Positions 1 through 15,692 of a DNA stretch of 64,000 nt are shown here, piece by piece (the stretch's first letter is position 1; the number at the start of each line of letters is the position of its first letter). Source of the stretch: a virus; the IMG/VR virus record IMGVR_UViG_3300027859_000890, positions 32,001 through 96,000 of that record. One strand, 5' to 3'. A program made the translations under genes and the position numbers. The notes below the pieces were generated by a model. That model had not been told where the DNA came from and ran no database searches. It saw only the letters and a list, made by a program, of their open reading frames with translations.

Positions 1-2
1 GG

Positions 3-575
3 ATGCCAGAACACTTGTGGCCAACAGAACTTAAAGGCTTTAAAGGCAGTGCATTAGCAAGCATAAATATTGCTGATAGATTAACATTACGCATTTTGGA
101 GAAGTTTGATACTATCTTAGATACAGGCACTACATTAGTAGATGCACATAAAGTTCCATTCAACACAACAAGAGTGATACATTATCCAGCATATGATGGA
201 CCTATGTTAGACAAACAAATGCGTATAGGAGAACATAGTGACTACGGTACTATTACTTTACTTTGGCAAATTAATGATGTCCCCGGACTTCAAGTTCAAG
301 ACCTTGCTGGCGACTGGCATCCAGTACCCTATGCGGACGACGGCGTTGTTGTTAACATTGGTGACTTACTACAGCGTTGGACTAATGATTATTTTAAAAG
401 TACTAAACATAGAGTGGTGAACACTCACATACATCAACAGAGATATTCAATGCCACACTTTGTTGATCCTACACCTGGAACAATAGTGAAAAACTTGCGT
501 AAAGGCGAAGAGGATAAGTATGACCCAATTGAATCCAAAGAATATTTGATGTGGCGACTAGCACAGAGTTATTGA
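3..575 (+). CDS. 2OG-Fe(II) oxygenase, isopenicillin N synthase-like (possibly 5' partial)
   Basis: HSD...H facial triad (HSDYG, HRVV) and RYS 2OG-binding motif. Confidence 0.85.
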   Translation: MPEHLWPTELKGFKGSALASINIADRLTLRILEKFDTILDTGTTLVDAHKVPFNTTRVIHYPAYDGPMLDKQMRIGEHSDYGTITLLWQINDVPGLQVQDLAGDWHPVPYADDGVVVNIGDLLQRWTNDYFKSTKHRVVNTHIHQQRYSMPHFVDPTPGTIVKNLRKGEEDKYDPIESKEYLMWRLAQSY

Positions 576-576
576 T

Positions 577-1002
577 ATGACATATAGAACTAATGCAGAT
601 TTATTTGAAGTAGGAGATTTTATAAGCCACGCAGGGTTACCATTGCCTTGGAAGATTGAGTGTGATGCTATACGACCTGAATGGTGGGATGGACTTGCCC
701 GTATGGTTATGGATTACCAAACAAGACCATTTTACAAAGCAGTAGGCATTCCACGAGGCGGTATTCCGTTTGCACAAGCAATGAACAAATATGCAAGTGG
801 TGATCCTAATGATCAAGTTATGATTTGTGACGATGTGTTTACTACAGGTACAAGTATGAAAGAATTCATTGAACAAGAATATCCAGATTGGACAATGGGT
901 CAAGGATATCGTTGGGTTGTGTTTGCAAGGCAACCTAGCAATGTACATCCATATCACGTAAGAGCATTATTCACTATGCCAACAAAGCCAAGGGAAGAAT
1001 AA
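577..1002 (+). CDS. Type I phosphoribosyltransferase (orotate PRTase-like)
   Basis: PRPP loop ICDDVFTTGTS; GIPRGG. Confidence 0.8.
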   Translation: MTYRTNADLFEVGDFISHAGLPLPWKIECDAIRPEWWDGLARMVMDYQTRPFYKAVGIPRGGIPFAQAMNKYASGDPNDQVMICDDVFTTGTSMKEFIEQEYPDWTMGQGYRWVVFARQPSNVHPYHVRALFTMPTKPREE

Positions 1003-1910
1003 TGCAAGTAGAAAGTTTGAACGGTGTAGCAACACAAATTAACAATGTTGATATTACAAATCTAAGTGATAGTGATGCAGATAAAATCAAAAACATTTTA
1101 CGCAAAGATCTTATTGTAGTTTTAAAACATCAAGAAAGATTGCCTTTTTGGTTTGTTAATTTTGTTGAACGTATAGGCACCGTTGCTAACTACAGGCAAA
1201 TGATTTACACAAAAGAAGGGGAGTTTTATATTGGTAAGACTCCTCCAAATACAAATAGCTGGGATAAAGATAAAGAATTATATCCTATACAAAGAACAAC
1301 TGCAAAAAAGAATAAAAAGGGTATATCAACTGGTATATTCAGTTCGGGTATATTAGATTGGCACGCCAACTTAAATGGTTTAGATCGTGCTGATGGTGTA
1401 GCACTACAAGGTTATGAAGGCTGCGAAAACACAAGCACAAGTTATTTGAATACAAATTTAGCCTACAATGACTTAGATGGTGACTTTAAAAAAGAATTAG
1501 AAGGCGTGTATTGTGAATATGAATACACACCAGAAGTATGGGCAAAGGGCTTGCCCGAAACACAATATAAAATGATGAAAAAGGACGGACAAGAAGGTCC
1601 TTATAAAATGTGGCTGCTCCAACAAAATATTGCAGGTGTAAAGGGCATTTATTTTTACACTAATAATAAATGTAAGATTATCACAGAAGATGAAAAACTG
1701 TTCCAACGTTTGTACGATCATATGTTCCAAGACAAATATGTATATCAACATTGGTATGAACCAGGAGATATTGTGTTAATGGATCAACTTTTAACTTTAC
1801 ACAAGCGTGATCAAAATGATCCGGAAATACTTGCACAAAGAGTGCTCCATAGAATTACATTTCGGATAAGTAATTATAATAATTTCATAGCAGACAAAAA
1901 TAAGGTATAG
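1002..1910 (+). CDS. TauD/TfdA-family dioxygenase
   Basis: WHAN, W-x-PGDIVLMDQ-x-x-TLH-x-R, RVLHRIT. Confidence 0.75.
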   Translation: MQVESLNGVATQINNVDITNLSDSDADKIKNILRKDLIVVLKHQERLPFWFVNFVERIGTVANYRQMIYTKEGEFYIGKTPPNTNSWDKDKELYPIQRTTAKKNKKGISTGIFSSGILDWHANLNGLDRADGVALQGYEGCENTSTSYLNTNLAYNDLDGDFKKELEGVYCEYEYTPEVWAKGLPETQYKMMKKDGQEGPYKMWLLQQNIAGVKGIYFYTNNKCKIITEDEKLFQRLYDHMFQDKYVYQHWYEPGDIVLMDQLLTLHKRDQNDPEILAQRVLHRITFRISNYNNFIADKNKV

Positions 1911-1937
1911 TGCTACACTTTAGCGCATCTACAAAAC

Positions 1938-1965
1938 TTGACATACCTACAAAAAAACATATAAT
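1938..1965 (+). promoter_or_regulatory. Consensus sigma70-type promoter of the cox operon
   Basis: TTGACA-16nt-TATAAT just upstream of cox2. Confidence 0.8.
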
Positions 1966-1988
1966 TACTTAATAAGATAAGGAAAACA

Positions 1989-2729
1989 ATGCAAGAACTT
2001 GAAATAGTCGGTGCTCCAAGAAGCGGAGCAATGGGCTTCCAGCCAGCAGCCACTAGCCTAGCGGAAGGCATCTTTGCACTTGATGCAATGCTACTGGTTA
2101 TAATTACAGCAATTAGTATATTTGTTACAGCGTTAATGATATACACATTTATACGCTACAACCGCAAGCGTAATCCAACACCAGCAACGTTTACACATAA
2201 TAGTCCAATAGAAGTAGCGTGGACAATTGTACCTGTGTTTATATTGTTGTTCATAGGTATGCTTACATTACCTGAACTATTTAGGCAACAGATTATACCA
2301 GAAGCAGATGTAAGAATAAAAGTTACAGGCTATAGTTGGTATTGGGGATATGAATACACAGACCACGATTTTGGCTTTGACAGTTATATGCTTGAAAAAG
2401 AACAACTTGCAGAATATGGTTATGACGATGAATACTATTTGTTAGCAACAGATACAGCAGTGGTTGTACCTGTAAACAAAACTGTGGTAATGAATATCAC
2501 AGGAGGCGATGTTATACATAGTTGGAAGATACCTGCGTTTGGAGTAATGCAAGATGCAGTGCCCGGCAGACTAGCACAGTTATGGTTCAAGCCTGAACGT
2601 GAAGGCATTTACTTTGGACAGTGTTCAGAACTATGTGGTAAGAATCACGCATATATGCCTATCACTGTTAAAGTTGTAAGTGAAGTAGAATATAATAAAT
2701 GGCTTGAATGGGCTGCCAATGAATATTAA
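1989..2729 (+). CDS. ctaC: aa3-type cytochrome c oxidase subunit II
   Basis: Two TM helices, WYWGYEY, DVIHSW and CuA motif CSELCGKNHAYM. Confidence 0.97.
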   Translation: MQELEIVGAPRSGAMGFQPAATSLAEGIFALDAMLLVIITAISIFVTALMIYTFIRYNRKRNPTPATFTHNSPIEVAWTIVPVFILLFIGMLTLPELFRQQIIPEADVRIKVTGYSWYWGYEYTDHDFGFDSYMLEKEQLAEYGYDDEYYLLATDTAVVVPVNKTVVMNITGGDVIHSWKIPAFGVMQDAVPGRLAQLWFKPEREGIYFGQCSELCGKNHAYMPITVKVVSEVEYNKWLEWAANEY

Positions 2730-3237
2730 ATTAGCATTGAAACTTGTTTTTATTGGAGTAGCAATGGGAGCATTGGCTTTTGCCAGTGTGCCATTTTATG
2801 ATTGGTTTTGTAGAACAACAGGATTTGGCGGAACACCACTTACAGCAGAAAGTGTAGAAGTAGAAGCATTGGATAAAACTATTACAGTTAGATTTGATGC
2901 AAACGTAGATTCAGACTTTCCTTGGTTGTTTTCACCAATGCAAAAGAAAATGGAAGTGCGTATAGGCGAATCAGAAATGGCTTTTTACCAAGTGCATAAT
3001 CCAACAGATGAAACAATGGCAGGCACTGCTACATTTAATGTAGTGCCTATGAGTGCAGGAGCATACTTTGTTAAGACAGAATGTTTTTGCTTTCAGCACC
3101 AAGAACTAGCACCTGGGCAGACAGAAGAAATGCCTGTTAGTTTTTATATAGATCCGGAGATATTAGAAGACAGAGAAACAGATTATCTTCAAACAATTAC
3201 ACTCAGTTACACATTTTATGAAAAGGATACACAATGA
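2719..3237 (+). CDS. ctaG: Cytochrome c oxidase copper chaperone Cox11/CtaG
   Basis: [15 protein letters not shown] and CFCF Cu motif; ATG at 2719 preferred. Confidence 0.95.
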
Positions 3238-4892
3238 CAGACGCAACACACGATGAATATCAGTCAGGATGGTTCACTAGATGGTTTATGAGTACAAACC
3301 ATAAAGATATTGGAATATTGTATTTGATTACTGCTGCCGTTATAGGTTTTATCAGTGTGGCATTGACAGTTTATATGCGTATGGAACTTATGCAACCTGG
3401 TGTACAATTTATGTGCGATGAAGGCGCTAGACTTATTATAGACAGCAGTGAATGTACACCAAACGGACACTTGTGGAATGTTGTAATTACATCACACGGT
3501 ATCCTTATGATGTTTTTTGTGTTGATACCTGCACTGTTTGGAGGCTTTGGTAACTATTTTATGCCGTTGCAAATTGGTGCACCTGATATGGCTTTTCCTA
3601 GAATGAATAATTTAAGTTATTGGTTGTATGTTGCAGGTGTTACACTTGCTATTTGTAGTTTGTTTGTGCCAGGAGGCAGTGGACAAAACGGTGCTGGTGT
3701 AGGTTGGGTAATGTATCCACCGCTAAGTAGCACTGAAGGTGGTATGAGTATGGACCTAGCTATCTTTGCGTTGCACGTATCGGGCGTCAGCAGTATACTT
3801 GGTGCAATCAATATTATTACTACATTTTTGAATATGCGAGCACCTGGAATGACACTACACAAAGTTCCTTTGTTTGCTTGGAGTATATTTGTAACAGGTT
3901 GGTTAATACTGTTGAGTCTACCTGTGCTGGCAGGTGCAATTACAATGTTGCTTACAGATAGAAACTTTGGTACAACATTCTTTGATCCTGCAGGTGGCGG
4001 TGATCCTATATTGTATCAACACATATTTTGGTTCTTTGGACACCCAGAAGTTTACATTATTATTTTACCAGGCTTTGGATTGATATCACATATTGTTGCA
4101 ACGTTTTCACGTAAGCCTATTTTTGGTTACTTGCCAATGGTATATGCAATGGTTGCAATTGGTGCATTAGGTTTTGTTGTATGGGCTCACCATATGTATA
4201 CAGTTGGTTTGTCAGTTACACAACAATCATATTTTATGTTGGCAACAATGGTAATTGCTATACCAACAGGTATAAAAATCTTCAGCTGGGTAGCAACACT
4301 TTGGGGTGGTAGTATAGAATTTAAAACACCAATGCTATGGGCTTTAGGATTTATATTTTTGTTTACAGTAGGAGGCGTAACAGGTATTGTGCTTTCACAA
4401 TCACCAGTTGATAGAGCATATCACGACACTTATTATGTTGTGGCACACTTTCATTACGTTATGTCGCTAGGTGCTGCCTTCTCAGTGTTTGCTGGAATAT
4501 ATTATTATTGGGGTAAAATGACTGGTAGGATGTACAGTGAATGGATGGGCAAGTTACATTTTTGGATGATGTTTATTGGTTCAAACGTAACATTCTTTCC
4601 ACAGCATTTTTTAGGACGCCAAGGTATGCCAAGACGTTATATTGATTATCCAGAAGCATTTGCATTGTGGAACTATGTAAGCAGTTTGGGTGCGTTCTTA
4701 GCATTTGCAAGTTTCATATTGTTCTTTTGGATAATGGCACATAGTTTCTTTTTTGGCAGACGTATTACAGAAACTAATTATTGGAACGAGTATGCAGATA
4801 CATTAGAATGGACACTACCTTGCCCACCACCAGAACACACTTTTGAAATATTGCCAAAAAGAGAGGATTGGGACAAAAGTGCTACACATTAA
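3234..4892 (+). CDS. ctaD: aa3-type cytochrome c oxidase subunit I (type A1)
   Basis: [49 protein letters not shown]. Confidence 0.98.
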
Positions 4893-4906
4893 CGCAGGCA
4901 ATAAGG

Positions 4907-4935
4907 TTGACTTTTACTTAAAAATTTGCTATATA
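4907..4935 (+). promoter_or_regulatory. Early sigma70-type promoter
   Basis: GGTTGACT-17nt-TATATA with TGn extended -10. Confidence 0.6.
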
Positions 4936-4967
4936 TAATATAAGAATAACACACACACGGAGTTAGT

Positions 4968-5396
4968 ATGAATCAAAAACCAAACCCAATTGGTTGGGCA
5001 AACACCATCTCTTCAATACAAAACGAATTTAAATCTATGTGGTCAATAATAATGACCATCGAAAACTCGCCACTGAAGAAACTTGATCCTAGAGTAGCTC
5101 ATATGTTGTTTCTAATTTTGGCTTTTATGTGGAGCGGAATCTTTGCAGTAATGATTGGCAGTGTAACTGCTTTTGGTATTAGTGCAATAGCACACATTAT
5201 CTTAGTTTCAGGAACAGCAATTACTATTATGGTATTTAATGAAGCAGACAAAAGACCAGACAGTCTAAATAAAACTGTTGAATCTTTTAAACTAGTAAGT
5301 GGCTATCATAGCTTTCCGCGAGCCAGGCAGAATTTGTGGGTAAACGGACAAAAAGTACAATTAGATGATAAAGATCCAGGAGGCGAACACGAATGA
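4968..5396 (+). CDS. Hypothetical membrane protein (2 TM)
   Basis: GGAG RBS, two hydrophobic segments. Confidence 0.7.
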   Translation: MNQKPNPIGWANTISSIQNEFKSMWSIIMTIENSPLKKLDPRVAHMLFLILAFMWSGIFAVMIGSVTAFGISAIAHIILVSGTAITIMVFNEADKRPDSLNKTVESFKLVSGYHSFPRARQNLWVNGQKVQLDDKDPGGEHE

Positions 5397-5584
5397 CTTA
5401 TAATTTTTTTAACAAGAACAATGGTGACGCTTTTTCTATGCAGTTTGATAATGAGCATAAGAAAGATGTGTACGTAAGTAGTAACCCCAATTTGGTTTGT
5501 TTAGGCGAGCAAGAATTTACCTTGCCTACTCGTCACGTAAGAATGCAAAACAAAGAAGAGGAGTTTGCCGGATGGGGAAGCTAA
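5393..5584 (+). CDS. Hypothetical protein
   Basis: ATGA overlap with upstream gene. Confidence 0.55.
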   Translation: MTYNFFNKNNGDAFSMQFDNEHKKDVYVSSNPNLVCLGEQEFTLPTRHVRMQNKEEEFAGWGS

Positions 5585-5642
5585 TTAGAAAAATTAAAGT
5601 TGAATTTCCTTGGACAAAAAATTTACCTGAGGTTACTGGTAG

Positions 5643-5858
5643 GTGACTGATCCAAGAGTAGAAGCCCAAGCAGAAGCTGAACGTACATTTGATCAGTTTA
5701 TGGTTTGGACAAAAAGGGTTGTAATATATAGTATAATATTTTTAATGATTGTGCTATTTGGTTGCAACAATGGTGTAGAAGTAGGCCCTAATGCTACAGG
5801 GTCAAAATATAATGGAGAACAATATGCTCCGTCTAATATTAATGTTAAGGATTATTAA
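5643..5858 (+). CDS. Probable aa3 cytochrome c oxidase subunit IV-like protein
   Basis: EAERTFDQFMVWTKRVVIYSIIFLMIVLF resembles the alphaproteobacterial subunit IV pattern (E-x-TF-x-x-F plus one TM helix); 750 nt downstream of cox1. Confidence 0.6.
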   Translation: MTDPRVEAQAEAERTFDQFMVWTKRVVIYSIIFLMIVLFGCNNGVEVGPNATGSKYNGEQYAPSNINVKDY

Positions 5859-6271
5859 TGAGTAGACTAAAAAATATTGTAAATCGTATACCAGAATTTT
5901 GTATGAGTCACTGGTTAATAAGAATACCTCTTGCTATTGTATTCTTACAACAAGGTTTTAGTAAACTTCCTGTTACTATAGAAGGAGCAGAGTCTTTTGA
6001 CTTGCCTTATATTGTTTGGTGGTTTGCGGCATATGGTGAAATTGGTGCAGGTATAGGTTTACTAGTTGGTGGTTTAGTTTTTTATAAAGCAATAGCTGAA
6101 CTGCAAGATATTATCACAAGATTTTCAGGTATTACTATTTGTAGTATTATGACAGGAGTAATATGGATAGGAGAGCCAGAAAGTCTTTGGGACGTTATTT
6201 GGTACGATAACTTACACGTATTTTTATGGGTAGGAGGTTTGTTCTTTGCTTTGCGAGGCAATAGAACTTGA
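5858..6271 (+). CDS. DoxX-family membrane protein
   Basis: LIRIPLAIVFLQQGFSK, AYGEIGAGIGLLVG, TRFSG. Confidence 0.8.
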   Translation: MSRLKNIVNRIPEFCMSHWLIRIPLAIVFLQQGFSKLPVTIEGAESFDLPYIVWWFAAYGEIGAGIGLLVGGLVFYKAIAELQDIITRFSGITICSIMTGVIWIGEPESLWDVIWYDNLHVFLWVGGLFFALRGNRT

Positions 6272-6477
6272 GCGGACAAAGACGTATGCTCAAATGGTGG
6301 GCAAGAACAGTTGGTATGCCTATTGGTATCACCGACGATGATAAACCAGAGTTCTTGCCTATATCACAAACAGATGTCAAACGTGCTTTATGGGCAAGGA
6401 CATTTTGGATTGTGTTACATATATTAACTTGTTGCTTCATTATAGCAGGCAACGGAAAAACACTAGGAGTTTGGTAG
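6268..6477 (+). CDS. Small membrane protein
   Basis: TTGA overlap; C-terminal TM segment. Confidence 0.6.
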   Translation: MSGQRRMLKWWARTVGMPIGITDDDKPEFLPISQTDVKRALWARTFWIVLHILTCCFIIAGNGKTLGVW

Positions 6478-6605
6478 TGATTAAAATAATTGGATATTTC
6501 AAAGACAGTGTTGTTTCACGTGTGTTTGACAATGAATGGGACGCAATGGATTATAGAGATACATTAGATGCACATTATGCAAAAGTAGAATGGGTGTATC
6601 TATAA
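6477..6605 (+). CDS. Hypothetical protein (42 aa)
   Basis: GTG start after GGAG, abuts flanking genes. Confidence 0.5.
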   Translation: MIKIIGYFKDSVVSRVFDNEWDAMDYRDTLDAHYAKVEWVYL

Positions 6606-6730
6606 TGTGGGACGCAATAATATTTTTTGGTGTAGTTTATGGTTATACATTTGGTATGATTGCATTTGCATATATAAGCCACAATATACATACAAGAGAT
6701 CCTTTTGGTAATAGTGGAATGAGATTATGA
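6605..6730 (+). CDS. Small membrane protein (41 aa, not in ORF track)
   Basis: MWDAIIFFGVVYGYTFGMIAFAYI...; TAATG and ATGA overlaps on both sides. Confidence 0.5.
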   Translation: MWDAIIFFGVVYGYTFGMIAFAYISHNIHTRDPFGNSGMRL

Positions 6731-6951
6731 AGTTTTTAATTATAGTTATGTTAACAATAGGTGATCCTTTTATTATAAAAACACTGAAGTTTGATAGTAA
6801 AGAAGAATGTGTAAAATATGTAATGAATCCAGCGAATGCAGATGTACTTGCAATCGAAACAATAGCAGTGGCAGGTTTCAATGATCCTATGACAGCTATA
6901 CTGTGTTTACCAGAAAATCAAAATGTAGTGGAGGTGCCTAATGAAGCCTAA
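6727..6951 (+). CDS. Small secreted hypothetical protein
   Basis: Hydrophobic N-terminus, FDSKEEC and a second Cys. Confidence 0.6.
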   Translation: MKFLIIVMLTIGDPFIIKTLKFDSKEECVKYVMNPANADVLAIETIAVAGFNDPMTAILCLPENQNVVEVPNEA

Positions 6952-7162
6952 TAATAAATTTGAATTATCAGTTGAGGATATTGATATTATAGAGACTGCT
7001 CTTAGAGCAAAAGCCGGACGTAGAGGTATGAAAATACTTACAGGTGAAGGCGATGTGAATAAGTATAAGAAAGAAGCAGAAGAAATTACCAACCTTCTAG
7101 GACGTATACACGATCAAAAAGTATGGTTTCGTTCTAGAGATAAAGTCTATGTAGGAGGATAA
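6941..7162 (+). CDS. Hypothetical protein
   Basis: GGAGG RBS, overlap with upstream gene. Confidence 0.65.
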   Translation: MKPNNKFELSVEDIDIIETALRAKAGRRGMKILTGEGDVNKYKKEAEEITNLLGRIHDQKVWFRSRDKVYVGG

Positions 7163-7163
7163 T

Positions 7164-7601
7164 ATGATTAGACTATTGACTACTCTAGCAATGCTAGTAG
7201 CAATGGCAATTCCTGCCGTTGCAGAAGATGTTACACTTGAAATGTGGAACAAAGACCCAGAAGATAAGAAACGCAAAATGGTTTTCTCAGAAGAGATTGT
7301 AACTATTGAACCAGGACAATCTATTACTTGGTTAGCATCAGATAAAGGACACAATGTTCAAATGATTGCAGGACCAAAAGGCGTAGACTTACCAGGTAAA
7401 TCAAAAATATCAAAAGATGTTACTTTGTCATTTGATGACCCAGGTGTGTACGTTTATGTTTGTACACCACACGCAACAATGGGTATGATTGGCGTAGTTG
7501 TTGTAGGTGAAGCAACTGAAGAAGCTATTAAAGCAGTTGAAAAAGCAAAAGTACGTGGCAAGTCAAAGAAGAAGCTACAGAAACTATTAAAAGAACTTTG
7601 A
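7164..7601 (+). CDS. Pseudoazurin (type 1 blue copper protein)
   Basis: Signal peptide, DKGHNV and YVCTPHATMGM copper ligands. Confidence 0.9.
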   Translation: MIRLLTTLAMLVAMAIPAVAEDVTLEMWNKDPEDKKRKMVFSEEIVTIEPGQSITWLASDKGHNVQMIAGPKGVDLPGKSKISKDVTLSFDDPGVYVYVCTPHATMGMIGVVVVGEATEEAIKAVEKAKVRGKSKKKLQKLLKEL

Positions 7602-7677
7602 TACTAAAATTGTTGTTTTTAAGCAACACCTATTGCAAATCTGTTACAAAATAGCGCACCTAGTTTCACAAAGTGCA

Positions 7678-7721
7678 TAAATAATACTGCGAAAGGGCAA
7701 GCGTTGAAAAACTTGCCCTTT
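7678..7721 (+). promoter_or_regulatory. TAAATA late-type promoter followed by a 10-bp 5' UTR hairpin
   Basis: TAAATA 7678-7683; AAAGGGCAAG (7692-7701) pairs with CTTGCCCTTT (7712-7721). Confidence 0.55.
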
Positions 7722-7756
7722 GCCATATCCACATAATAAAAAGAAGGAAATATATT

Positions 7757-8548
7757 ATGCGCAAGGTATTTACCACAATGGCAGCAATGATGGTCGCGGG
7801 TGCGGCATTTGCTGAAGCACCAGCAGTATCAGGTCCGATGCTGTCAGGTGAAGTGGAACTAAAGTTCACACAAGATGCAACCACTGACAAATGGGGTGGT
7901 GCAATGGGTCTAGACTTAGGTATAGATGCAAACGGAGTAGCAAGTGTTGATCTTGATCTATCTGCACAAGACGGCGGATCAGTTACATTAGACAACTGGA
8001 CAGTTGGCACAAATGTAGCAGGTGTAGGCGTTGCAGTTGGTGACGACAATGGTGTGTTTGTTGGAGCAGAAGGCGAGCAAACAATCGCAGCCCCAGCAAT
8101 GACTGAGTCAGTAAAAGTAACTGTAGGCGATGCAGCCGTAGCAGTTGGTTTGACAGACTGGACAACTGATGCATTTGATATCAGCAACATTCAAGGTTCG
8201 TATGCAATTGGTGACGTAGCTGGTTTATCAGTTACGGCATCAGGTGACTATAACTTGGACAGTGAAAACATTGTACTAGGTGGTGCAGTAGGCGGACTAG
8301 AAGCAGGACCAGCAGGCATTAGCAGTACTGTAACATATGATGTTGATGCAGAACTATGGGGATTCGAAGGCGTTGCAACAATGGGTGCTATTACAGCATA
8401 TGCAAACGGTGACGATACAGATCTACTACAAAACGTAGGTGGTGACTATGAATACAATTTAGGTGGAGCAACATTGAACACCGGAATGGTATACAACTTA
8501 GATTCAGAAGAATTTACACCATCAGCAAGTGTTAGTTTTAACTTCTAA
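7757..8548 (+). CDS. Outer-membrane porin-like beta-barrel
   Basis: Signal peptide ending AFA, alternating beta-strand pattern, C-terminal VSFNF beta-signal. Confidence 0.75.
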   Translation: MRKVFTTMAAMMVAGAAFAEAPAVSGPMLSGEVELKFTQDATTDKWGGAMGLDLGIDANGVASVDLDLSAQDGGSVTLDNWTVGTNVAGVGVAVGDDNGVFVGAEGEQTIAAPAMTESVKVTVGDAAVAVGLTDWTTDAFDISNIQGSYAIGDVAGLSVTASGDYNLDSENIVLGGAVGGLEAGPAGISSTVTYDVDAELWGFEGVATMGAITAYANGDDTDLLQNVGGDYEYNLGGATLNTGMVYNLDSEEFTPSASVSFNF

Positions 8549-8567
8549 TCACTGCAAACACAAGATT

Positions 8568-8592
8568 AAAAAGAGCCTCCGGGCTCTTTTTT
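8568..8592 (+). terminator. Rho-independent terminator (potentially bidirectional)
   Basis: AAAAAGAGCC-TCCG-GGCTCTTTTTT. Confidence 0.85.
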
Positions 8593-8657
8593 CATTTATA
8601 AATACTTGCACAAAATAATATGTTGTGTTATTATAAAGTATTAGCTAAAAGGTTACT

Positions 8658-10346
8658 ATGAGAAAGAACAGAATTATTCTACTCAATGATATCTTTGATA
8701 ATGATATTAGTGGGCAGACGCAGGACTCTTTGCAAGATTTAGATGACGATACGTTCAATAATTTACATATTGAGCAACAAGAAAAGTCAAATAAAAAGTA
8801 TGAAGTCAAAATGATTTCTACTAATAACAAGTATACCTTTTGGAGTAGGTATATGGGTCCTTATGCAGTGGCCAGTGCTGTACATCAAAACTGTCCTGAT
8901 TGGGAAGTTGTTGTTATTGATTGGTTTACAAAAATTGATCATTTTCACGACTACATAGCAAACTTTATAAATGAGGACACTTACTATATTGGACTAAGCA
9001 CAACATTTTTATTGAATACATTTAATCCAAGAGCACAGGATTTTAATTTATGGTTTACTAGACAACGTCAAGTTGATGACTGGTTCAATAAGATTAAAGA
9101 AATAAATCCTGATATTGAATTTATATTAGGTGGTGCTATTACTGATTTATTTTACAAAATACATTTTAAAACAAGACCAGAAGCAAAGTTTCCTGTTGCG
9201 TTTCAAAATCATATTAACTATGTTTTCAATGGTTACGCAGAAGATACAATGGTAGAGTTTCTTAATGGAGAACTAGAACCTCAAAAAGTACACGAAAAGA
9301 ATGGTATCTTTTTTATCAACGAAACAAAAATGGCATCCACTGGTGCAAAAGTATTACAAAGCAATTATCAACACTCAATGGCTATTAAGAATGGCGAGTG
9401 GTTGCCGCTTGAAGTTAGCAAAGGTTGTAGGTTTGGTTGTAAGTTTTGTTTCTATGATATTAGAGGCACACTAATCAAAGACGCAGATTGTTTACGTGAA
9501 GAACTTATGTACAACTATGAAAACTTTGGCGTAACAGGATATATGCTAACAGATGATACAGTTAACGATAGTCCTGCAAAAATAGATATGTTACACAAAG
9601 TCATTAAGAGTTTGCCATTTAAAATGGAATGGATTAGTTATTGTAGGCCAGATATGTTTAGTAAGTATCCTGAAATGTGGCGTAAAATGATTGATATGGG
9701 TTGTAAAGGTGTTTTCTTAGGTGTTGAAACATTAGATCATACAGCAGGTAAACTTGCAGGCAAAGGACTTGATCCAGAACGTATGAAAGAAATATTAACT
9801 TGGATGCGTGAAGTTGCACAAGACGATGTTTTTATTCTTGCTAGTATGATTATTGGACTGCCTGGAGAAACAAAAGAAAGTTTATACAAAACAGCAGAGT
9901 GGTTCAAAGAGCAAACAGTATTAGACAAGATACAATATGAACTATTCTTTGTAAGTGATGGCAACGATAGTAAGTCTCCTGCATTTACAGGTAAGCCAGA
10001 CAATCCATACGGAATACATTTAGAATATTATCCAAACTATTATTGGAAACACAACAGTATGGATTTACACGATGCACAATTTATGGCGTTGGAATGGGAA
10101 AAGATGCTGATTGATCATCCTAAGACAGCATTTGAAAGACACTTTAGTTACAACACAAATTTTTGGGCTTATCCAAGACTGCGTAGTTTAGGATATGATC
10201 ATTTAGAGTCTGTTGGTATATTGACAGCAAAAGTTGTACCACAAGAAGTTTACGAAAAGAATAGACGTTGGATTGATAATTATCACACAGAATTAAAATT
10301 AATTAACCACGTCAAATCATTACAACAAGAAGAAATGTTAGCGTGA
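8658..10346 (+). CDS. Radical SAM protein, B12-binding class-like
   Basis: EVSKGCRFGCKFC, DDTVN, LGVET, IIGLPGET. Confidence 0.88.
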   Translation: MRKNRIILLNDIFDNDISGQTQDSLQDLDDDTFNNLHIEQQEKSNKKYEVKMISTNNKYTFWSRYMGPYAVASAVHQNCPDWEVVVIDWFTKIDHFHDYIANFINEDTYYIGLSTTFLLNTFNPRAQDFNLWFTRQRQVDDWFNKIKEINPDIEFILGGAITDLFYKIHFKTRPEAKFPVAFQNHINYVFNGYAEDTMVEFLNGELEPQKVHEKNGIFFINETKMASTGAKVLQSNYQHSMAIKNGEWLPLEVSKGCRFGCKFCFYDIRGTLIKDADCLREELMYNYENFGVTGYMLTDDTVNDSPAKIDMLHKVIKSLPFKMEWISYCRPDMFSKYPEMWRKMIDMGCKGVFLGVETLDHTAGKLAGKGLDPERMKEILTWMREVAQDDVFILASMIIGLPGETKESLYKTAEWFKEQTVLDKIQYELFFVSDGNDSKSPAFTGKPDNPYGIHLEYYPNYYWKHNSMDLHDAQFMALEWEKMLIDHPKTAFERHFSYNTNFWAYPRLRSLGYDHLESVGILTAKVVPQEVYEKNRRWIDNYHTELKLINHVKSLQQEEMLA

Positions 10347-10903
10347 AGATTGCATTGACAGGCCATACTAGAGGTATTGGCAATGCGTGTAAACAATTGC
10401 TAGAACCTGAACACGAAATTATTGGCTTTAGTAGAACAAATGGTTACAATATAAACGAACCTAAAGTAATATATGAACTTGCAAAAGATGCAGATGTTTT
10501 TATAAACAATGCACAGTTTCAAGATTATCAAACAAAATTATTTGATTTGTTTTGGGATGATTGGAAATACAAACACAAGACTATTATTAATATTCAAAGT
10601 TCAAGTAAATATCCAGAAACACAAGCACGTTTCGGTAACTATGTAAAATATAAACAAGAGTTAGACGCAAATGTAAAAGCAAAAACATTACGTATGAGAG
10701 CTGGTGTTAGTACATTCAATTGCAGAGTAACAAATTTAATTGTTGGCTGGACTGATACAGATATGATAAAATTTTTAAGACACGTTAAAAAGATGCCGCC
10801 TAGTAAAGTTGCAGAAACACTTAAATGGGTGCTGGATCAACCACAAGATTTACAAATTTTTGAATTAGCAGTTTGGCATCAGAATACCAAGCCTGATAAA
10901 TAA
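10343..10903 (+). CDS. Short-chain dehydrogenase/reductase
   Basis: TGHTRGIG, INNA, YxxxK (YVKYK). Confidence 0.8.
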   Translation: MKIALTGHTRGIGNACKQLLEPEHEIIGFSRTNGYNINEPKVIYELAKDADVFINNAQFQDYQTKLFDLFWDDWKYKHKTIINIQSSSKYPETQARFGNYVKYKQELDANVKAKTLRMRAGVSTFNCRVTNLIVGWTDTDMIKFLRHVKKMPPSKVAETLKWVLDQPQDLQIFELAVWHQNTKPDK

Positions 10904-10933
10904 TATGGGCATATTATTTAGAGAGGGCGAACA

Positions 10934-11407
10934 ATGCAAAATAATGAATACGATGTTAAGGTTGTCAAAGTTGTAGACGGAGACACAGTAGACGTAGATA
11001 TCAACTTAGGCTTTGGTGTTTGGTTATCAGACGAGCGTGTGAGGATAATGGGTATAGACACTCCTGAATCACGCACAAGCGATAAAGTAGAAAAAGTTTT
11101 TGGCTTGGCTGCAAAAGACAGATTGTATCAACTTATGGAGAAAGATGCAAAACTAATTACTACAGAAAACAAAAAAGGCGAAGATATGAAAGGCAAGTTT
11201 GGACGTATCTTAGGTGATTTTCTTACAGCAGATGGACGCAAAGTAACAGACATAATGATTGAAGAAGGACATTGTGTAGCATACTTTGGTGGATCAAAAG
11301 AAGAAATACAAATGAAGCATATGGCCAATAGAGAGAAACTATTGCGTGAAGGTGTGGTAAGTAAAGAAGCAGTAGACGAAGCAAAGAAACTTATGGAAGG
11401 AAAGTAA
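10934..11407 (+). CDS. Thermonuclease (SNase-like)
   Basis: VVDGDTV, RVRIMGIDTPE, GKFGRIL. Confidence 0.9.
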   Translation: MQNNEYDVKVVKVVDGDTVDVDINLGFGVWLSDERVRIMGIDTPESRTSDKVEKVFGLAAKDRLYQLMEKDAKLITTENKKGEDMKGKFGRILGDFLTADGRKVTDIMIEEGHCVAYFGGSKEEIQMKHMANREKLLREGVVSKEAVDEAKKLMEGK

Positions 11408-11646
11408 TGAACACAAATTACTCTACCATTGCTGAAATACAGAGTTGGATTAATCGTGCAGTTTCTAATGTTGAAGATCAACTTAGACGCATTGACGAAA
11501 CTGATCCAAATTATCAGTGGCTTGTGGATAGAAGAGCATATCTCAAGGAGTACAGTGCAAAATACGGAAGTATGATTGGCAAAGAATTGCCAAAAAAGCG
11601 TGATAGAAGTAATATGCGCCATTACAATAGGCCAAGAACGTTTTAG
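11407..11646 (+). CDS. Hypothetical protein
   Basis: TAATG overlap. Confidence 0.55.
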   Translation: MNTNYSTIAEIQSWINRAVSNVEDQLRRIDETDPNYQWLVDRRAYLKEYSAKYGSMIGKELPKKRDRSNMRHYNRPRTF

Positions 11647-11647
11647 G

Positions 11648-11675
11648 TTGACAGCATAATAACTCCTGCTATACT
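11648..11675 (+). promoter_or_regulatory. Early sigma70-type promoter
   Basis: GGTTGACA-16nt-TATACT with TGn. Confidence 0.7.
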
Positions 11676-11705
11676 AAGTGTGTAGTAACAAAACAGGAGT
11701 TTATT

Positions 11706-12068
11706 ATGAGTATGCATCTTGTAGGTCCTTATATGACCACAACTAATTACAAGAAACGCAAACAAAAAGGTCTTACAAAGAAAGATCGACAAGCACAAGT
11801 AGAACACGAAAAGTTCCTTGCTAAGATGGGTGTCAAGAAACCCACAACAGATTATCGTGCGCCAATGCCAGATTATAGGTCACACAGTGGTAACACTGTT
11901 CCTACTAGCGACCGCATTGATGGACACGCACCACAGATAGAACGCAATGTGTATTCAGGCGAAAGACAACTATTAGGTATCGCTACAATGCACAAAAGCA
12001 ATATGGTTCCTGTGTTTGCAGACAAGAAAGAAGATGCAAAAGACATTGCCAATATGAGGAGAGGATGA
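11706..12068 (+). CDS. Phage hypothetical protein
   Basis: AGGAG RBS; GIATMHKSNMVPVF motif recalled from large myophages. Confidence 0.7.
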   Translation: MSMHLVGPYMTTTNYKKRKQKGLTKKDRQAQVEHEKFLAKMGVKKPTTDYRAPMPDYRSHSGNTVPTSDRIDGHAPQIERNVYSGERQLLGIATMHKSNMVPVFADKKEDAKDIANMRRG

Positions 12069-12301
12069 AAAAACTTATTTTAGTTGTAGCCAGTGTATTA
12101 CTATCTAATGTTGCACAAGCAAATGAAACAATAGACGAGTATATCACAGACAACTATATTAAGATGCCTGTACATATTCAAAAAGAAATAGACAAACTTA
12201 TGGAGTATGGAGATAGATACAAAGAAGCAATATTTGCAATAATCCATACTCAGTTAGTATATGATGGCAACCCAAGTTGTCACGATTCAGAAGATGTCTA
12301 A
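12065..12301 (+). CDS. Secreted hypothetical protein
   Basis: Signal peptide ending AQA. Confidence 0.6.
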   Translation: MKKLILVVASVLLSNVAQANETIDEYITDNYIKMPVHIQKEIDKLMEYGDRYKEAIFAIIHTQLVYDGNPSCHDSEDV

Positions 12302-12333
12302 ACGAAAGTAAATACTGTAACAGAGGAGCAGTT

Positions 12334-12813
12334 ATGAAACACTTTATTATGGCGGCTATTCTATTAGTCGCGGCTAAGGCCGCTGATGCGTCAGAGAGCC
12401 TTTTTAATCCTGAAAGTTATCCACAAATACATTGCTTGGCTTTGAATGTTTATTTTGAAGCAAGAGGCAGCAACCTAGCAGATAAGGCAGCAGTAGCAGA
12501 TGTAGTTTTGAACAGGAAAAATGATACACGTTATCCACAAACTATTTGCGAAGTTGTACACGATGGTTACAAGAAAGGTCGCAGAGATTGTCAATTCAGT
12601 TGGTTCTGTGATGGTAAAGCAGATGTACCTAAGGAATATGATCGATGGGCCGAAGCACAAATGATTGCTTGGGGTATGGTCAAGTTTGACAAGTACCGCG
12701 GTATCACAGAAGGTGCAACACATTATCACGCAACTTATGTCAGTCCAAGATGGGCAAAATCGTTGCAAATGGTGGGTAGAATAGGTGCGCATATATTCTA
12801 CCGTTGGGAGTGA
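12334..12813 (+). CDS. Cell wall hydrolase, SleB/Hydrolase_2 family
   Basis: CLALNVYFEARG, CQFSW, GATHYHA, IGAHIFY; start reset to ATG after GGAG. Confidence 0.92.
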   Translation: MKHFIMAAILLVAAKAADASESLFNPESYPQIHCLALNVYFEARGSNLADKAAVADVVLNRKNDTRYPQTICEVVHDGYKKGRRDCQFSWFCDGKADVPKEYDRWAEAQMIAWGMVKFDKYRGITEGATHYHATYVSPRWAKSLQMVGRIGAHIFYRWE

Positions 12814-12825
12814 TTAAATAATATA

Positions 12826-15072
12826 ATGATATTTGGTATTTTTGTTATGATAACGGCGCTAACAATAAGCGCCGTTGCTATCTATTACTCGGTAAGCGGG
12901 CTTGTGGCTATTTTTGCCGCCGCCGCTATACCTATAATCATAATGGGTACTGCTCTTGAAGTAGGCAAGTTAGTTACAGCAGTTTGGTTACACTGGTATT
13001 GGGATAAAGCCAAATGGTGGCTTAAAACATATTTGAGTATTAGTGTCCTTGTGTTGATGTTTATTACGTCAATGGGTATATTTGGCTTTTTAAGTAAAGC
13101 ACATATTGAACAAACTAGTGCCGCTGAAGAAGGCATTGCACAAATTGAACGTATAGAACAAGAAGTGCTAAGAGTACAAGATTTAATTGTAAGAGCTGAA
13201 TCACGCATAGCAGATGCAGAAGCAAGTGTAGGCGAAGGCAATGAAGATACACAAGCACAAATAGACAAAGAACAAACACGTATTGATACAGCGTATGATA
13301 GAGCTCAACCTGCTATTGATGAACAAAACGCTATAATTTCAGGACAACTCGATAGTTTAGAAGATAGAGTTGCAGTCTATGTAGAAGAAATAAAAAGTTT
13401 AGATCAAGAACTTAGTAGACTGAAATCTCTCATAGAAGAATATAGAAGTGAAATAGCAAATACAAGTGTAGCAAGTATTGAAGCACAAGTGCAACCCTAT
13501 AACGACCAAATTGCACAACTAGATGCAGATTTACAACGTATAAACACACAAGCAAATGAATACGAAAAACGTATTAGTGAATTACAAATAGACAACAGTG
13601 CAATTGAAGCACTCAAAACTAGAGTTGCTGCTGTTGAAGAAAAAATTGTTTTAGTAACAAACAAGTTACAAAGCAACGAACGTGCTAAAGTTAAAGAAGG
13701 TCAAGCAGTAATAGGTGTAACCAGTGATGGACTTTTTGGTGGTAACACTACTAGAGCATATAATGCTTGGCTAGAAGCACAGAGAGCTCGTATAAGCGAG
13801 CTACAAGCACAGGAAACAGATTTACGTATACAAGCACAAGCAACACTTGATGCTGAAAGAACACGATTGACAGATCTTGTAAAAGATTTGCGTGGGGCAC
13901 AGACCGAGACAATACTACAACGCAAACAAAGTTTATTAGATGCTATAGATAAAGTAAGAACAAACAGCATTGACGAAGCTAAAATTGCAAAAGCTGACAT
14001 ACAGTTAAAGATTGATACAGTCTTGAACACAGACATTCCTGCTAATAGGAGCGCAAGGCAAACTGCTCAAGAGCAAATCACTGCCTTGCGTCAAGCAGAC
14101 GATCCACGTATCAATGCAGCCAGACAGACAATAAAAGATTTAAGATCAAGTGCAGATGCACAAATTGCGGCAAGCAATGATCTTATACAGAGATTGCGTA
14201 ACAGCCTTACAGTAGGCAAAGACGCAGACGTTGAAGCACTAGTAGATGCTCAACAAAAAAAGATTGTAGAGTTTAATAATACTATTGACAAATTAACTGA
14301 AAACAAGTATGCTCTACAAGCTGATTATAGAAAACTAGAAGCAGAAGTAGGACCAATAAAGTACCTAGCAGAATTTATATATGGTGAAACAAACGAAGAT
14401 ATACTCGAAGAAGCAGTAAGATGGGTAATAATAGTAATCATATTTGTATTCGATCCTTTAGCAGTTCTCCTGCTCATTGCGAGCCAAGCCACATTCGAGA
14501 TGCGCAGACAGGAGCGACATCGGCTAGCCGCGGAGGGAAAAGACAATGACAATACAAGCAATGATCATCAGTATGATGAATATGCACAATCCGGAAGCGA
14601 AGACACACCACCTAGTGGAACCACAAGTACCGATACCAGAGGAAGCGACAGTGAAAGTAGCGCAGAAGAAAAAAATATCGCCTATGCCAGCTTGTATGCA
14701 GAAACTGGAACCAGATCTGATAGAGGAAGCACTGCCCCAGTCGTTTTGGAACAACACCAACAACAAGGTATAATGTTCGGAGAAGATAATCTCAAATCAA
14801 AAGAGATTAAAGAAAGAGTTACTGAAGTTGCAAAACACGCAGACGATCCAGTATGGATAGAAGCAAGACGTAAATGGAAAGATGAAAATCCAGATCAGAA
14901 TGTAAAGGATTATCAACAGGCATATATATCTGGTAGAATACACGAACTACCGTGGGACGTATCTTATATTGCCAAAGACGAAAAAGGCAAACAGTTTACA
15001 GGTTACGTTCAAAACAACGAACAAGATGAAAACAGTATATGGCAAAAAATAGGTAAAAATGACAAAAATTAA
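12826..15072 (+). CDS. Membrane-anchored long coiled-coil protein with a PG-binding-like motif
   Basis: Three N-terminal TM segments, about 400 aa of heptad-rich sequence, central DGLFGGNT, C-terminal TM. Confidence 0.75.
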   Translation: MIFGIFVMITALTISAVAIYYSVSGLVAIFAAAAIPIIIMGTALEVGKLVTAVWLHWYWDKAKWWLKTYLSISVLVLMFITSMGIFGFLSKAHIEQTSAAEEGIAQIERIEQEVLRVQDLIVRAESRIADAEASVGEGNEDTQAQIDKEQTRIDTAYDRAQPAIDEQNAIISGQLDSLEDRVAVYVEEIKSLDQELSRLKSLIEEYRSEIANTSVASIEAQVQPYNDQIAQLDADLQRINTQANEYEKRISELQIDNSAIEALKTRVAAVEEKIVLVTNKLQSNERAKVKEGQAVIGVTSDGLFGGNTTRAYNAWLEAQRARISELQAQETDLRIQAQATLDAERTRLTDLVKDLRGAQTETILQRKQSLLDAIDKVRTNSIDEAKIAKADIQLKIDTVLNTDIPANRSARQTAQEQITALRQADDPRINAARQTIKDLRSSADAQIAASNDLIQRLRNSLTVGKDADVEALVDAQQKKIVEFNNTIDKLTENKYALQADYRKLEAEVGPIKYLAEFIYGETNEDILEEAVRWVIIVIIFVFDPLAVLLLIASQATFEMRRQERHRLAAEGKDNDNTSNDHQYDEYAQSGSEDTPPSGTTSTDTRGSDSESSAEEKNIAYASLYAETGTRSDRGSTAPVVLEQHQQQGIMFGEDNLKSKEIKERVTEVAKHADDPVWIEARRKWKDENPDQNVKDYQQAYISGRIHELPWDVSYIAKDEKGKQFTGYVQNNEQDENSIWQKIGKNDKN

Positions 15073-15454
15073 TGTAATTACTCCACCGGATATTTTACAT
15101 AATCAAAACCAAAGCATCTTATTAATATATCCAAGCACTGAGTTGCGACAAGAATTTCAAACGTATTTAGAAGTTGTTGGCAAATCAATCAATGTATATT
15201 TATACGATCCAACTGATGAAGATGTAGATGTTGCTTGGTTGTTGGCTTTGGCCAAAGTATGTGAAACTGTAATATTAGATTTAGATCAAATGCAACCGCT
15301 AGAAAAAAAGTTTGCAAGTTATTTAATTAGTTTGCCAAATACTTTTTACTTGACAAAAGACGATGTTACACCTTATAATAAACTTAGCCTTAATAGAGTT
15401 TATGACTTGAAATGGCTCATTGAAACTGATGAAGGACAAAATGAAAAACAATAG
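15059..15454 (+). CDS. Hypothetical protein
   Basis: Overlapping ORF in operon. Confidence 0.65.
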   Translation: MTKINVITPPDILHNQNQSILLIYPSTELRQEFQTYLEVVGKSINVYLYDPTDEDVDVAWLLALAKVCETVILDLDQMQPLEKKFASYLISLPNTFYLTKDDVTPYNKLSLNRVYDLKWLIETDEGQNEKQ

Positions 15455-15692
15455 AAGAAAACATAACGACGATTGGAATAGAACAGGCTTGCAAGTAAAT
15501 GTTGTTAACAACGATGTTACTAAGGCAATGCGTAAACTTAAAAAGAAAATTTCAGAAGATGGTTTGATGCAAGAACTAAGAAAGCGTGAATACTTTGAAA
15601 GCAAAGGCACACGCAAAAGACTTGCTAAAAAAGCAGCCATTAGACGTTACAAAAGAAATCAAGCAAAACTAAAAGAACAGTTAGGTTATTAA
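15441..15692 (+). CDS. rpsU: Ribosomal protein bS21
   Basis: VVNNDVTKAMRKLKKK...ELRKREYFES. Confidence 0.9.
   Translation: MKNNRRKHNDDWNRTGLQVNVVNNDVTKAMRKLKKKISEDGLMQELRKREYFESKGTRKRLAKKAAIRRYKRNQAKLKEQLGY

Follow-up and report, generated by a model that had tools for sequence, protein, structure and literature searches.

An overlapping operon for the core subunits of an aa3-like cytochrome c oxidase and their copper chaperone on a phage contig from the sea

Can a phage of heterotrophic marine bacteria intervene in the respiration of the cell that it infects? Phage takeover of photosynthetic electron transport is well known, while for aerobic respiration in heterotrophic marine bacteria, read counts and lists of genes have so far given no more than hints of it. 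The question is raised by three genes, cox2, cox11 and cox1, in a stretch of 64,000 nucleotides (the window) that comprises bases 32001-96000 of one 134,166-bp linear contig (G000; C1 or L001 in coordinates), stored as IMG/VR virus record IMGVR_UViG_3300027859_000890. The original prediction saw in them a proton-pumping aa3 cytochrome c oxidase module borne by a phage. Our analysis leads us to consider it likely that the locus is a genuine auxiliary module, that is, an early-promoter operon for subunit II, the CuB chaperone Cox11 and the catalytic subunit I of an A-type (aa3-like) oxidase, carried by a large, uncultured T4-like marine myophage, and that a hybrid oxidase made with it sustains respiration.

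Oxidase core genes with intact metal sites and proton channels

The three genes form an overlapping unit behind a perfect TTGACA/TATAAT pair, just as the original prediction had described (Table 1). The two hexamers occupy positions 1938-1943 and 1960-1965 and are the sole perfect match within positions 1-9000. The window as a whole contains five perfect matches where 0.18 are expected, and because four of the five fall inside open reading frames (ORFs), we treat the putative promoter as a consensus match only. An AGGA sequence lies 5 nt ahead of the cox2 ATG. The overlap between cox2 and cox11 is 26 nt if cox11 starts at the TTG at 2704, or 11 nt if it starts at the ATG at 2719, and that between cox11 and cox1 is 4 nt. 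The module had been thought to extend to position 5858, which overshoots, since cox1 ends at 4892 and the ORFs at 4968-5858 are not oxidase genes.

All three proteins were recognized by their Pfam families, with E-values of 3e-21 for COX2_TM, 1e-45 for COX2, 2e-56 for CtaG_Cox11 and 9e-159 (529 bits) for COX1, and all exceeded the NCBIfam equivalog cut-offs (CoxB TIGR02866, 184.5 versus 147.7; CtaG NF003465, 219.6 versus 162; CtaD_CoxA TIGR02891, 694.9 versus 670.75). COX1 aligned with subunit I of Paracoccus denitrificans (1ar1_A) at 1029 bits over residues 10-552 with one single-residue gap, and each of the 17 residues checked was kept (H88, D118, N125, W266, H270, E272, Y274, H319, H320, T345, K348, H397, D398, H405, H407, R467 and R468). 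We take these to comprise the haem a, haem a3 and CuB histidines, the cross-linked tyrosine, the Mg ligands, the D-channel Asp, Asn and Glu, the K-channel Thr and Lys and the haem-propionate Arg pair. The motifs PDMAFPR, GHPEVY and GIKIFSW, at 117, 269 and 346, hold the D-channel Asp, the Glu and the K-channel Lys that had been reported as intact. When 354 columns conserved at 98% or more were drawn from 116 other COX1 homologues, not all of them confirmed as cellular, the phage protein kept 345 and its nine differences were all conservative; in a leave-one-out control, the other sequences differed at a median of 1 column and at 7 at most.

In COX2, the CuA motif CSELCGKNHAYM lies at residue 212, and alignment A1 shows no variation at the CuA ligands H177, C212, E214, C216, H220 and M223. 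The protein aligned with Rhodobacter sphaeroides subunit II (1m56_B) at 348 bits from the mature N-terminus onwards. An apparent 14-residue deletion relative to 1m56_B was dropped, as alignment A1 identified it as an insertion peculiar to R. sphaeroides. Against the CtaG domain of Sinorhizobium (1so9_A), Cox11 gave a match of E 3e-45 in which both the CFCF motif and the FCR cysteine upstream line up; an N-terminal membrane anchor, a CFCF copper-binding motif and a third, upstream cysteine are the hallmarks of CtaG/Cox11. The three products are thus an A-type haem-copper oxidase subunit I, a subunit II with its CuA site and transmembrane helices, and a CtaG/Cox11 protein. They share with the aa3 oxidases of P. 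denitrificans and R. sphaeroides a subunit I that aligns end to end with the checked residues, the CuA ligands and the YWGYEY tryptophan region of subunit II, and the CFCF motif of Cox11.

The channel residues bear directly on what such an enzyme would do. A phage-borne oxidase need not conserve energy: it might act as an O2 and electron sink that protects radical-SAM enzymes from O2 or reactive oxygen species, or it might re-tune or displace the host oxidase. The window has at least eight radical-SAM genes, the contig encodes a peroxiredoxin-like protein, and a related viral contig (L007, described below) has an alternative oxidase, which is non-proton-pumping, near its cox genes, all of which would fit such a role. 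A mere sink, however, would not need the D- and K-channel residues, which are strongly constrained, and the ribonucleotide reductase of the phage matches the aerobic NrdA/NrdB families, a class that itself needs O2. We regard a sink or re-tuning role as unlikely and favor an oxidase that conserves energy.

Table 1. Features of the cox region, the remainder of the contig and related viral contigs. Positions are those of the window unless a contig is named (C1 and L001, the contig that holds the window; L007 to L010, related contigs); aa, amino acids; TM, transmembrane.
Feature	Position	Strand	Description	Basis
Putative promoter	1938..1965	+	sigma-70-type, TTGACA-16 nt-TATAAT; predicted	12/12 consensus match
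cox2/ctaC	1989..2729	+	subunit II, 246 aa, two TM helices and CuA domain, without signal peptide or C-terminal tail	Pfam COX2_TM, COX2
ctaG/cox11	2704..3237	+	CuB-insertion chaperone, 177 aa, N-terminal membrane anchor	Pfam CtaG_Cox11
cox1/ctaD	3234..4892	+	catalytic subunit I, 552 aa	Pfam COX1
orf142, orf63, orf71	4968-5396, 5393-5584, 5643-5858	+	three small ORFs of 142, 63 and 71 aa, not oxidase genes	Pfam, NCBIfam, Melnitz, PDB and homologue comparisons
DoxX-family gene	5858-6271		membrane protein	E 1e-7
Pseudoazurin-like gene	7164..7601	+	blue copper protein, signal peptide; 2.3 kb downstream of cox1	Pfam Copper-bind E 1e-14; PDB 3tu6_A E 8e-24
Exported-protein gene	7757-8548		263 aa; weak outer-membrane beta-barrel match	E 8e-4, below cut-off
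Hairpin	8568-8591	+	strong, terminator-like
2OG-Fe(II) oxygenase gene	3-575
Phosphoribosyltransferase-like ORF	577-1002		weak match
TauD/TfdA-family gene	1002-1910		dioxygenase
Radical-SAM genes	8658-10346, 37316-38572, 49234-57286		at least eight, including a run of paralogues
AlaS gene	C1:5977-7170	-	5-aminolevulinate synthase; 24.8 kb before window start	TIGR01821 562.8 bits versus cut-off 338.55
DUF454 gene	L001:7593-8072	-	membrane protein
Peroxiredoxin gene	L001:10519-11052		Redoxin/AhpC-type
Glyceraldehyde-3-phosphate dehydrogenase gene	L001:18338-19300			Gp_dh_N and Gp_dh_C
L007 (23.4 kb)	1-15915		AlaS - alternative oxidase - tetraspanin-like - ClpP-like - DUF454 - cox2 - cox1 - cox11	alternative oxidase: PF01786, E 4e-68
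L007, SdhB-like gene	13233-13952		2Fe-2S/4Fe-4S protein
L008 (194.5 kb)	9536-11560		DUF2244-cox1
L009	1-1338		cox1 at contig end
L010	1-1658		cox1-cox11, peroxiredoxin further on; phage-type exonuclease on contig

Viral context, gene order and selection

Searches with PHROG profiles found on the contig a tail fibre (phrog_9851, E 7e-53, within a protein of 2185 residues), baseplate-wedge-type N-termini, a clamp loader (E 2e-78), an endolysin (E 1e-66), NrdA, NrdB and a Lon-type protease, and the contig has a cluster of five tRNA genes. Nearly all long ORFs of the window lie on the plus strand, and its GC content is 32-41% in 2-kb steps, with a mean of 36.4%. When ORFs of at least 60 residues were compared with Methylophilales phage Melnitz, 47 of the 414 contig ORFs matched at E 1e-5 or better, corresponding to about 35 genes without antisense shadows. 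A csgF-csgG-curlin-FecR-curlin-cyclase block has the same order in both genomes, and ribosomal protein S21, Hsp20, ThyX, PhoH, peptide deformylase and orf142 are also common to both; orf142 lies directly 3' of cox1 and matches a Melnitz hypothetical gene at E 1e-11. The approximately 35 genes shared with Melnitz, which like HTVC008M is one of the Kyanoviridae-like T4-like marine myophages, include the baseplate-wedge N-termini, the clamp loader and the curli block; the T4 core genes gp23 (capsid), gp20 (portal), gp17 (terminase), gp18 (sheath) and gp43 (polymerase) had no counterpart among the Melnitz matches of the fragment. Because this T4 core is absent from the fragment and CheckV puts completeness at 37%, the data suggest a much larger genome. 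With phage genes on both sides, bridged junctions and a Rhodobacteraceae affinity, the cox genes show the pattern of auxiliary metabolic genes, that is, host-derived genes flanked by viral ones.

The best non-self matches of COX1 in a collection of 5.8 billion proteins were 81-84% identical, those with names being Rhodobacteraceae, and the best match among GTDB species genomes was 82% identical. In a quick tree built from 34 of the 120 matches listed and two IMG/VR outgroups, the phage sequence was sister to a homologue, P0003, among Rhodobacteraceae sequences, with a Shimodaira-Hasegawa-like approximate likelihood-ratio (SH-aLRT) support of 99. A GTDB scan with another homologue, P0121, gave a best identity of 83%, and amino-acid composition gave no separation for P0003 and P0121 or for the three other short COX2 forms described below. 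Identity of COX2 was at most 78% among the matches listed, the window's own excluded. For Cox11 it was at most 59% among the loci fetched in a metagenome scan, in which the homologues lay on high-GC or long contigs and no second phage lineage was found.

The arrangement of the genes was compared with that in cellular loci. In all 70 Rhodobacterales-type genome loci, cox1 had neither cox2 nor cox11 in its flanks (up to 8 kb). The 10 other Alphaproteobacteria returned had cox2-cox1, then a gap of at least about 1.1 kb, then cox11, except that cox11 was not seen in one of the ten. None of 80 metagenome loci found via Cox11 had cox1 in its flanks, and in 63 of them cox2 lay about 1.2-1.3 kb upstream of cox11; the single annotated cellular locus had the order COX2-UbiA-Cox11-COX3-SURF1. 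The overlapping ctaC-ctaG-ctaD, which matches no cellular locus examined, is thus a rebuilt unit with ctaB and ctaE omitted, in agreement with the earlier view of the gene order as a new assembly. The P. denitrificans/R. sphaeroides type of organization, ctaC-ctaB-ctaG-ctaE and a lone ctaD in the cellular loci examined, contrasts with the phage in this order, in the lack of subunit III, CtaB and CtaA on the fragment, in the 36% GC phage setting and in a subunit II that begins at the mature N-terminus and has no C-terminal tail. We infer that the genes derive from Rhodobacteraceae. The phage would have fused ctaC, ctaG and ctaD from two separate loci into a compact unit without ctaB and ctaE, and subunit II would have lost its signal peptide and its C-terminal tail.

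The start of phage COX2 coincides with the mature N-terminus of the cellular proteins, and eight codons lie between the upstream in-frame stop and the ATG. By comparison, all 56 cellular COX2 ORFs measured could be extended N-terminally by 18 codons or more, with a signal-peptide-like sequence in each of the 12 inspected, and had a median of 13 additional C-terminal residues. A cleavable signal peptide and a C-terminal extension, traits that are typical of Rhodobacteraceae-type subunit II but not catalytic, are therefore missing from the phage protein. Named Rhodobacteraceae proteins among the matches listed are 274-283 residues long, while three metagenomic sequences are as short as the phage form, namely P0256 (247 residues, 78% identity), P0257 (247 residues, 76%) and P0333 (248 residues, 72%). 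The four short forms share their start and stop positions, and a quick tree built from 26 of the 120 matches listed and three partial outgroups unites them in one clade on a long stem (SH-aLRT 99.6). Scans of IMG/VR with P0257 and P0333 gave no match.

L005, an IMG/VR contig that stems from a different metagenome, spans both cox junctions and has 95-97% identity to our contig over C1:24507-38195, equivalent to window positions -7494 to 6195. Between the two strains, cox1 has 28 synonymous changes and 1 non-synonymous change (ratio of non-synonymous to synonymous rates, dN/dS, 0.009), cox2 has 3 and 0, and cox11 has 4 and 0, which gives 35 synonymous changes and 1 non-synonymous change for the three genes together, with no sign of relaxed selection. 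GC content is 37-39% in the cox genes and GC at third codon positions (GC3) is 0.24-0.29, as compared with a GC3 of 0.19-0.29 in six of seven neighbours measured (0.41 in orf63); the genes are AT-rich and resemble their neighbours, as had been noted. The 6-kb cox stretch was present in 20 of 24 listed sequencing runs from 11 studies (2014-2025), and at least half of its words were found in 15 of these runs; one run may be the window's own source.

These sequence comparisons indicate that the cox genes are intact and under purifying selection, which bears on whether they are recently captured host DNA, a passenger that is neutral or being lost. COX1 does retain 82-84% identity to cellular proteins, and no subunit III or haem A genes lie alongside, as a passenger would allow. 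Several findings argue the other way: the excess of synonymous changes between strains, a GC3 like that of phage genes, the divergence of Cox11 to 59% or less, the rebuilt operon and removed signal peptide, a signal-less COX2 clade that has itself diverged to 72-78%, and the occurrence of the stretch in runs of 11 studies. We judge a passenger to be very improbable, and the reading as a selected auxiliary module is preferred.

The junctions themselves are seen repeatedly. A third IMG/VR contig runs from 7.9 kb upstream through cox2 and into the beginning of cox11. Contigs from runs of two other studies (X2 and X7) bridge TauD-cox2-cox11-cox1 (1852-3607, 1000-2345 and 2363-3598) as well as cox1-orf142 and beyond (4827-6025 and 4734-5585), and they do so at a depth of 13-18, equal to that of the flanks. 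The cox module is on a real phage contig and chimerism is unlikely. An assembly chimera or a mis-called cellular contig, with cox genes from a low-GC marine alphaproteobacterium, is largely refuted and has only the slightest chance of being correct: there are cellular contigs of low GC (36-40%) that carry cox2 and cox11, some COX1 matches in the phage collection lie on short unannotated contigs resembling host carry-over and the fragment is without capsid and terminase genes, but the junctions are bridged, at even depth, in three IMG/VR assemblies independent of one another and in contigs of two more studies, the gene order and signal-less COX2 occur in none of 160 cellular loci, non-self identity does not exceed 84% for COX1, 78% for COX2 among the matches listed and 59% for Cox11 among fetched loci, and a Melnitz-homologous gene lies immediately 3' of cox1.

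A COX1 scan of IMG/VR brought up five further contigs, one of which (L006) is a fragment of a giant-virus metagenome-assembled genome. The remaining four, L007-L010, have several non-cox genes in common with our contig (AlaS, DUF454, SNase, lipase-like, radical-SAM paralogues, tail fibre and peroxiredoxin), including a block syntenic with C1:11.7-17.3 kb. Their COX1 proteins keep every checked residue and are a divergent type, with 72-92% identity to one another, 49-60% to the window COX1 and no more than 63% to the cellular loci at hand. L007-L010 appear to be related large phages that have an intact COX1 as the window does, L007 also having cox2 and cox11, but with a separate COX1 type and with the orders cox2-cox1-cox11, cox1-cox11 and DUF2244-cox1. 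In L007, AlaS and the haem-binding oxidase subunit are encoded within about 3 kb of each other, and the gene content of this contig suggests a compact island for respiration and haem. Judging from these sequences, oxidase genes recur in this phage group, with at least two COX1 types. A SPASM/radical-SAM homologue adjoins cox1 in L008.

Twelve of 50,697 phage records matched COX1 by tblastn. Ten were short unannotated contigs or contigs of 'Acinetobacter phage MD-2021a' (232-305 kb, with cyoB annotated), and two were one Flavobacterium phage 6H fragment matching 21% of the query; none was accepted as a convincing phage oxidase. By blastn, the only matches of the cox region were to the two Acinetobacter records and covered 4% of the region.

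A putative hybrid oxidase and the genes around it

Because no COX3, CtaA, CtaB or Sco gene was found on the fragment, the product of the operon is likely to be a hybrid phage-host oxidase, and infected cells would probably go on respiring with a part-viral enzyme. The term proton-pumping aa3 module was accordingly overstated: subunits I and II and Cox11 are encoded with their channel residues, but the 134-kb fragment has no gene for subunit III, haem A synthesis or a CuA chaperone, and hence not the full set for an aa3 holoenzyme. Two other genes of the phage could contribute. One encodes AlaS. The other encodes a pseudoazurin-like protein, which scored 100 bits on TIGR02375, under the cut-off of 109.85, and had no match among phage records; it is a candidate periplasmic electron carrier that may be linked to the oxidase.

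We infer an order of expression, an assembly with host parts, an enzyme activity and a benefit to the phage as follows. Host RNA polymerase would transcribe the cox unit early in infection, and subunits I and II would enter the host inner membrane, the N-terminal tail of subunit II by a YidC-type route. Host CtaA and CtaB would supply haem A, for which phage AlaS may boost the precursor, while phage Cox11 would deliver CuB and host Sco/PCuAC would deliver CuA. The phage subunits would then join host subunits III and IV, and the hybrid oxidase would keep or raise the electron flow to O2 from cytochrome c and possibly from the phage pseudoazurin too. Proton-motive force and ATP supply could in this way be sustained once host gene expression falls.

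Short contigs 97-99% identical to cox2, cox11, cox1 and orf142 were found in two metatranscriptome runs of one sample. They show 1-5 differences per 120-230 bases and cover 2364-2593 in cox2, 3005-3170 in cox11, 3576-3695 and 4366-4531 in cox1, and part of orf142. Because cellular Cox11 homologues are at most 59% identical, only this phage population can account for the contigs. They give a hint of phage cox expression, with carry-over of DNA into the RNA libraries as a possible source. The RNA runs had no cover over 1000-2205 or 4819-5019, which was not used as evidence. Depth peaks at 3412-3612 and 4015-4416 were discarded as a phage signal, being the conserved cox1 of other organisms at the 90% threshold, as were many short 'joints' with sides of 20-44 letters in metagenome contigs.

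Several points weigh against an auxiliary module of a T4-like myophage that sustains respiration. The set of viral hallmark genes is incomplete: tail fibre, baseplate, clamp loader, endolysin and ribonucleotide reductase genes are present, but no ORF of the 134-kb fragment matched the Melnitz capsid, portal, terminase, sheath or DNA polymerase genes. The Gp23 Pfam profile had no match on the contig, but this search was uninformative because its control matched no genome either. At 37% completeness the remainder of the phage genome is unseen. Cultured relatives infect OM43 and SAR11, not roseobacters. The RNA support consists of assembled contigs from one sample only. The Pfam families for COX3, UbiA/CtaB, CtaA, Sco1 and cytochrome c had no match on the contig, a 37% complete fragment, while the positive controls did give matches, and because of this the phage, as far as its known genes go, cannot build the full enzyme alone; a core of subunits I and II without subunit III inactivates in turnover. 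Finally, a subunit II that has no signal peptide might enter the membrane inefficiently. These points are included in our estimate, and we still hold a host-completed oxidase on a T4-like myophage to be the likely explanation.

Downstream of cox1, no terminator-like site was found outside ORFs on the plus strand before the strong hairpin (Table 1), and it is possible that a single early transcript would run from cox2 to past the pseudoazurin gene. The DoxX-family gene and the gene for the 263-residue exported protein are in the same gene train as the cox and pseudoazurin genes and precede the hairpin. Two of the small ORFs were considered as further oxidase subunits and rejected. For orf142 as a short subunit III, there was no Pfam or NCBIfam match, and its homologue is in phage Melnitz. 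For orf71 as subunit IV, COX4_pro_2 scored 19.7 bits versus a cut-off of 22, no PDB match was found at E up to 10, and PF07835 was on none of the 120 listed homologues. The orf71 product is a single-TM protein with 252 marine metagenome homologues, of which 120 are listed at 67-100% identity; the contigs that encode them reach 336 kb in length, and no Pfam family or name is listed for any of these proteins. It is a strongly conserved and widespread small protein.

Immediately 5' of the putative promoter are the oxygenase, phosphoribosyltransferase-like and TauD genes of Table 1. Between the strains, TauD has 92.7% nucleotide identity and a synonymous divergence (dS) of 0.38, and the cox genes are much less variable, at 98.3-99.6%. 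A strain-level indel lies 5.6 kb 5' of the promoter, where approximately 730 bp at C1:27616-28349 are missing from L005 (3110-3117). Elsewhere on the contig, the DUF454 gene adjoins AlaS, and L007 has both just upstream of its cox genes; the peroxiredoxin is 60% identical to one on L010; and a glyceraldehyde-3-phosphate dehydrogenase is encoded.

Precedents and meaning

No description of a phage aa3 oxidase operon was found in open-access papers and bioRxiv, with subscription journals and supplements (tables of auxiliary metabolic genes) outside this scope. The claim that no phage terminal oxidase has been characterised has to be qualified, as cyanophage PTOX, virome reads of coxA and of cbb3-type subunit I, a viral norB and a listing of coxA and coxB are in print. 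According to the available text of a review, PTOX is in 35 and plastocyanin in 70 of 153 cyanophage genomes, and cyanophage plastocyanin is proposed as an electron feed for the host cytochrome oxidase (PMC10452541). From the portions of the reports at hand, coxA reads occur in clean viromes (Roux et al., PMC3877843), reads of cbb3-type subunit I in viral fractions (Williamson et al. 2012, PMC3474794), norB in viruses (Gazitua et al. 2020, PMC8115048), and coxA and coxB in a list of viral auxiliary metabolic genes (2026 preprint, 10.64898/2026.04.10.717577). These reports likewise ascribe genes of the same superfamily or KEGG entry to viruses, but they deal in read counts, catalogue entries and an NO (nitric oxide) reductase, and in the text available no A-type operon of subunits I and II and Cox11, nor its residues, origin or selection, is described. 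In the accessible part of a pelagimyophage paper, 'oxidase' appears solely as coproporphyrinogen oxidase (PMC7029224). Phage AlaS (vAlaS) is suggested, in the text at hand, to help haem enzymes such as cytochrome c oxidase stay working (PMC11480375); both those phages and ours have AlaS, but no phage-encoded oxidase is mentioned in that text, whereas here AlaS and a haem-binding subunit are on one phage.

The closest analogy is with cyanophage psbA/psbD, PTOX and petE, which are likewise host-derived core subunits of a membrane energy-transducing complex together with a blue copper carrier. PTOX is a di-iron quinol oxidase and pumps no protons. The cyanophage genes differ in being photosynthetic and in having expression and protein evidence, whereas the module here is for a haem-copper oxidase of heterotrophs and is known from genes and short RNA-library contigs. 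What is new and noteworthy, for its completeness as well as its architecture, is a selected, rebuilt operon for an oxidase core and its copper chaperone, in a phage that also encodes a haem-precursor enzyme and a copper electron carrier and that has relatives with other oxidase types.

A broader proposal can be made tentatively, and we give it somewhat less than an even chance. A lineage of large marine myophages may carry a kit that rebuilds the end of the host respiratory chain. Its members would have, in varying combinations, AlaS, subunits I and II with Cox11 and a blue-copper carrier, to which relatives add an alternative oxidase and a protein resembling SdhB. A recent, Rhodobacteraceae-derived and host-matched module would exist in it beside an older, virus-specific COX1 clade, and the signal-less subunit II would be a viral invention that spares host signal-peptide processing. 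If this is true, the lineage would be the respiratory counterpart, in abundant ocean heterotrophs, of the cyanophage photosystem cassettes. The signal-less subunit II is a natural experiment on the membrane insertion of subunit II, and part-viral oxidases that keep or raise the respiration of roseobacter-type hosts could alter models of O2 use and carbon turnover in infected cells.

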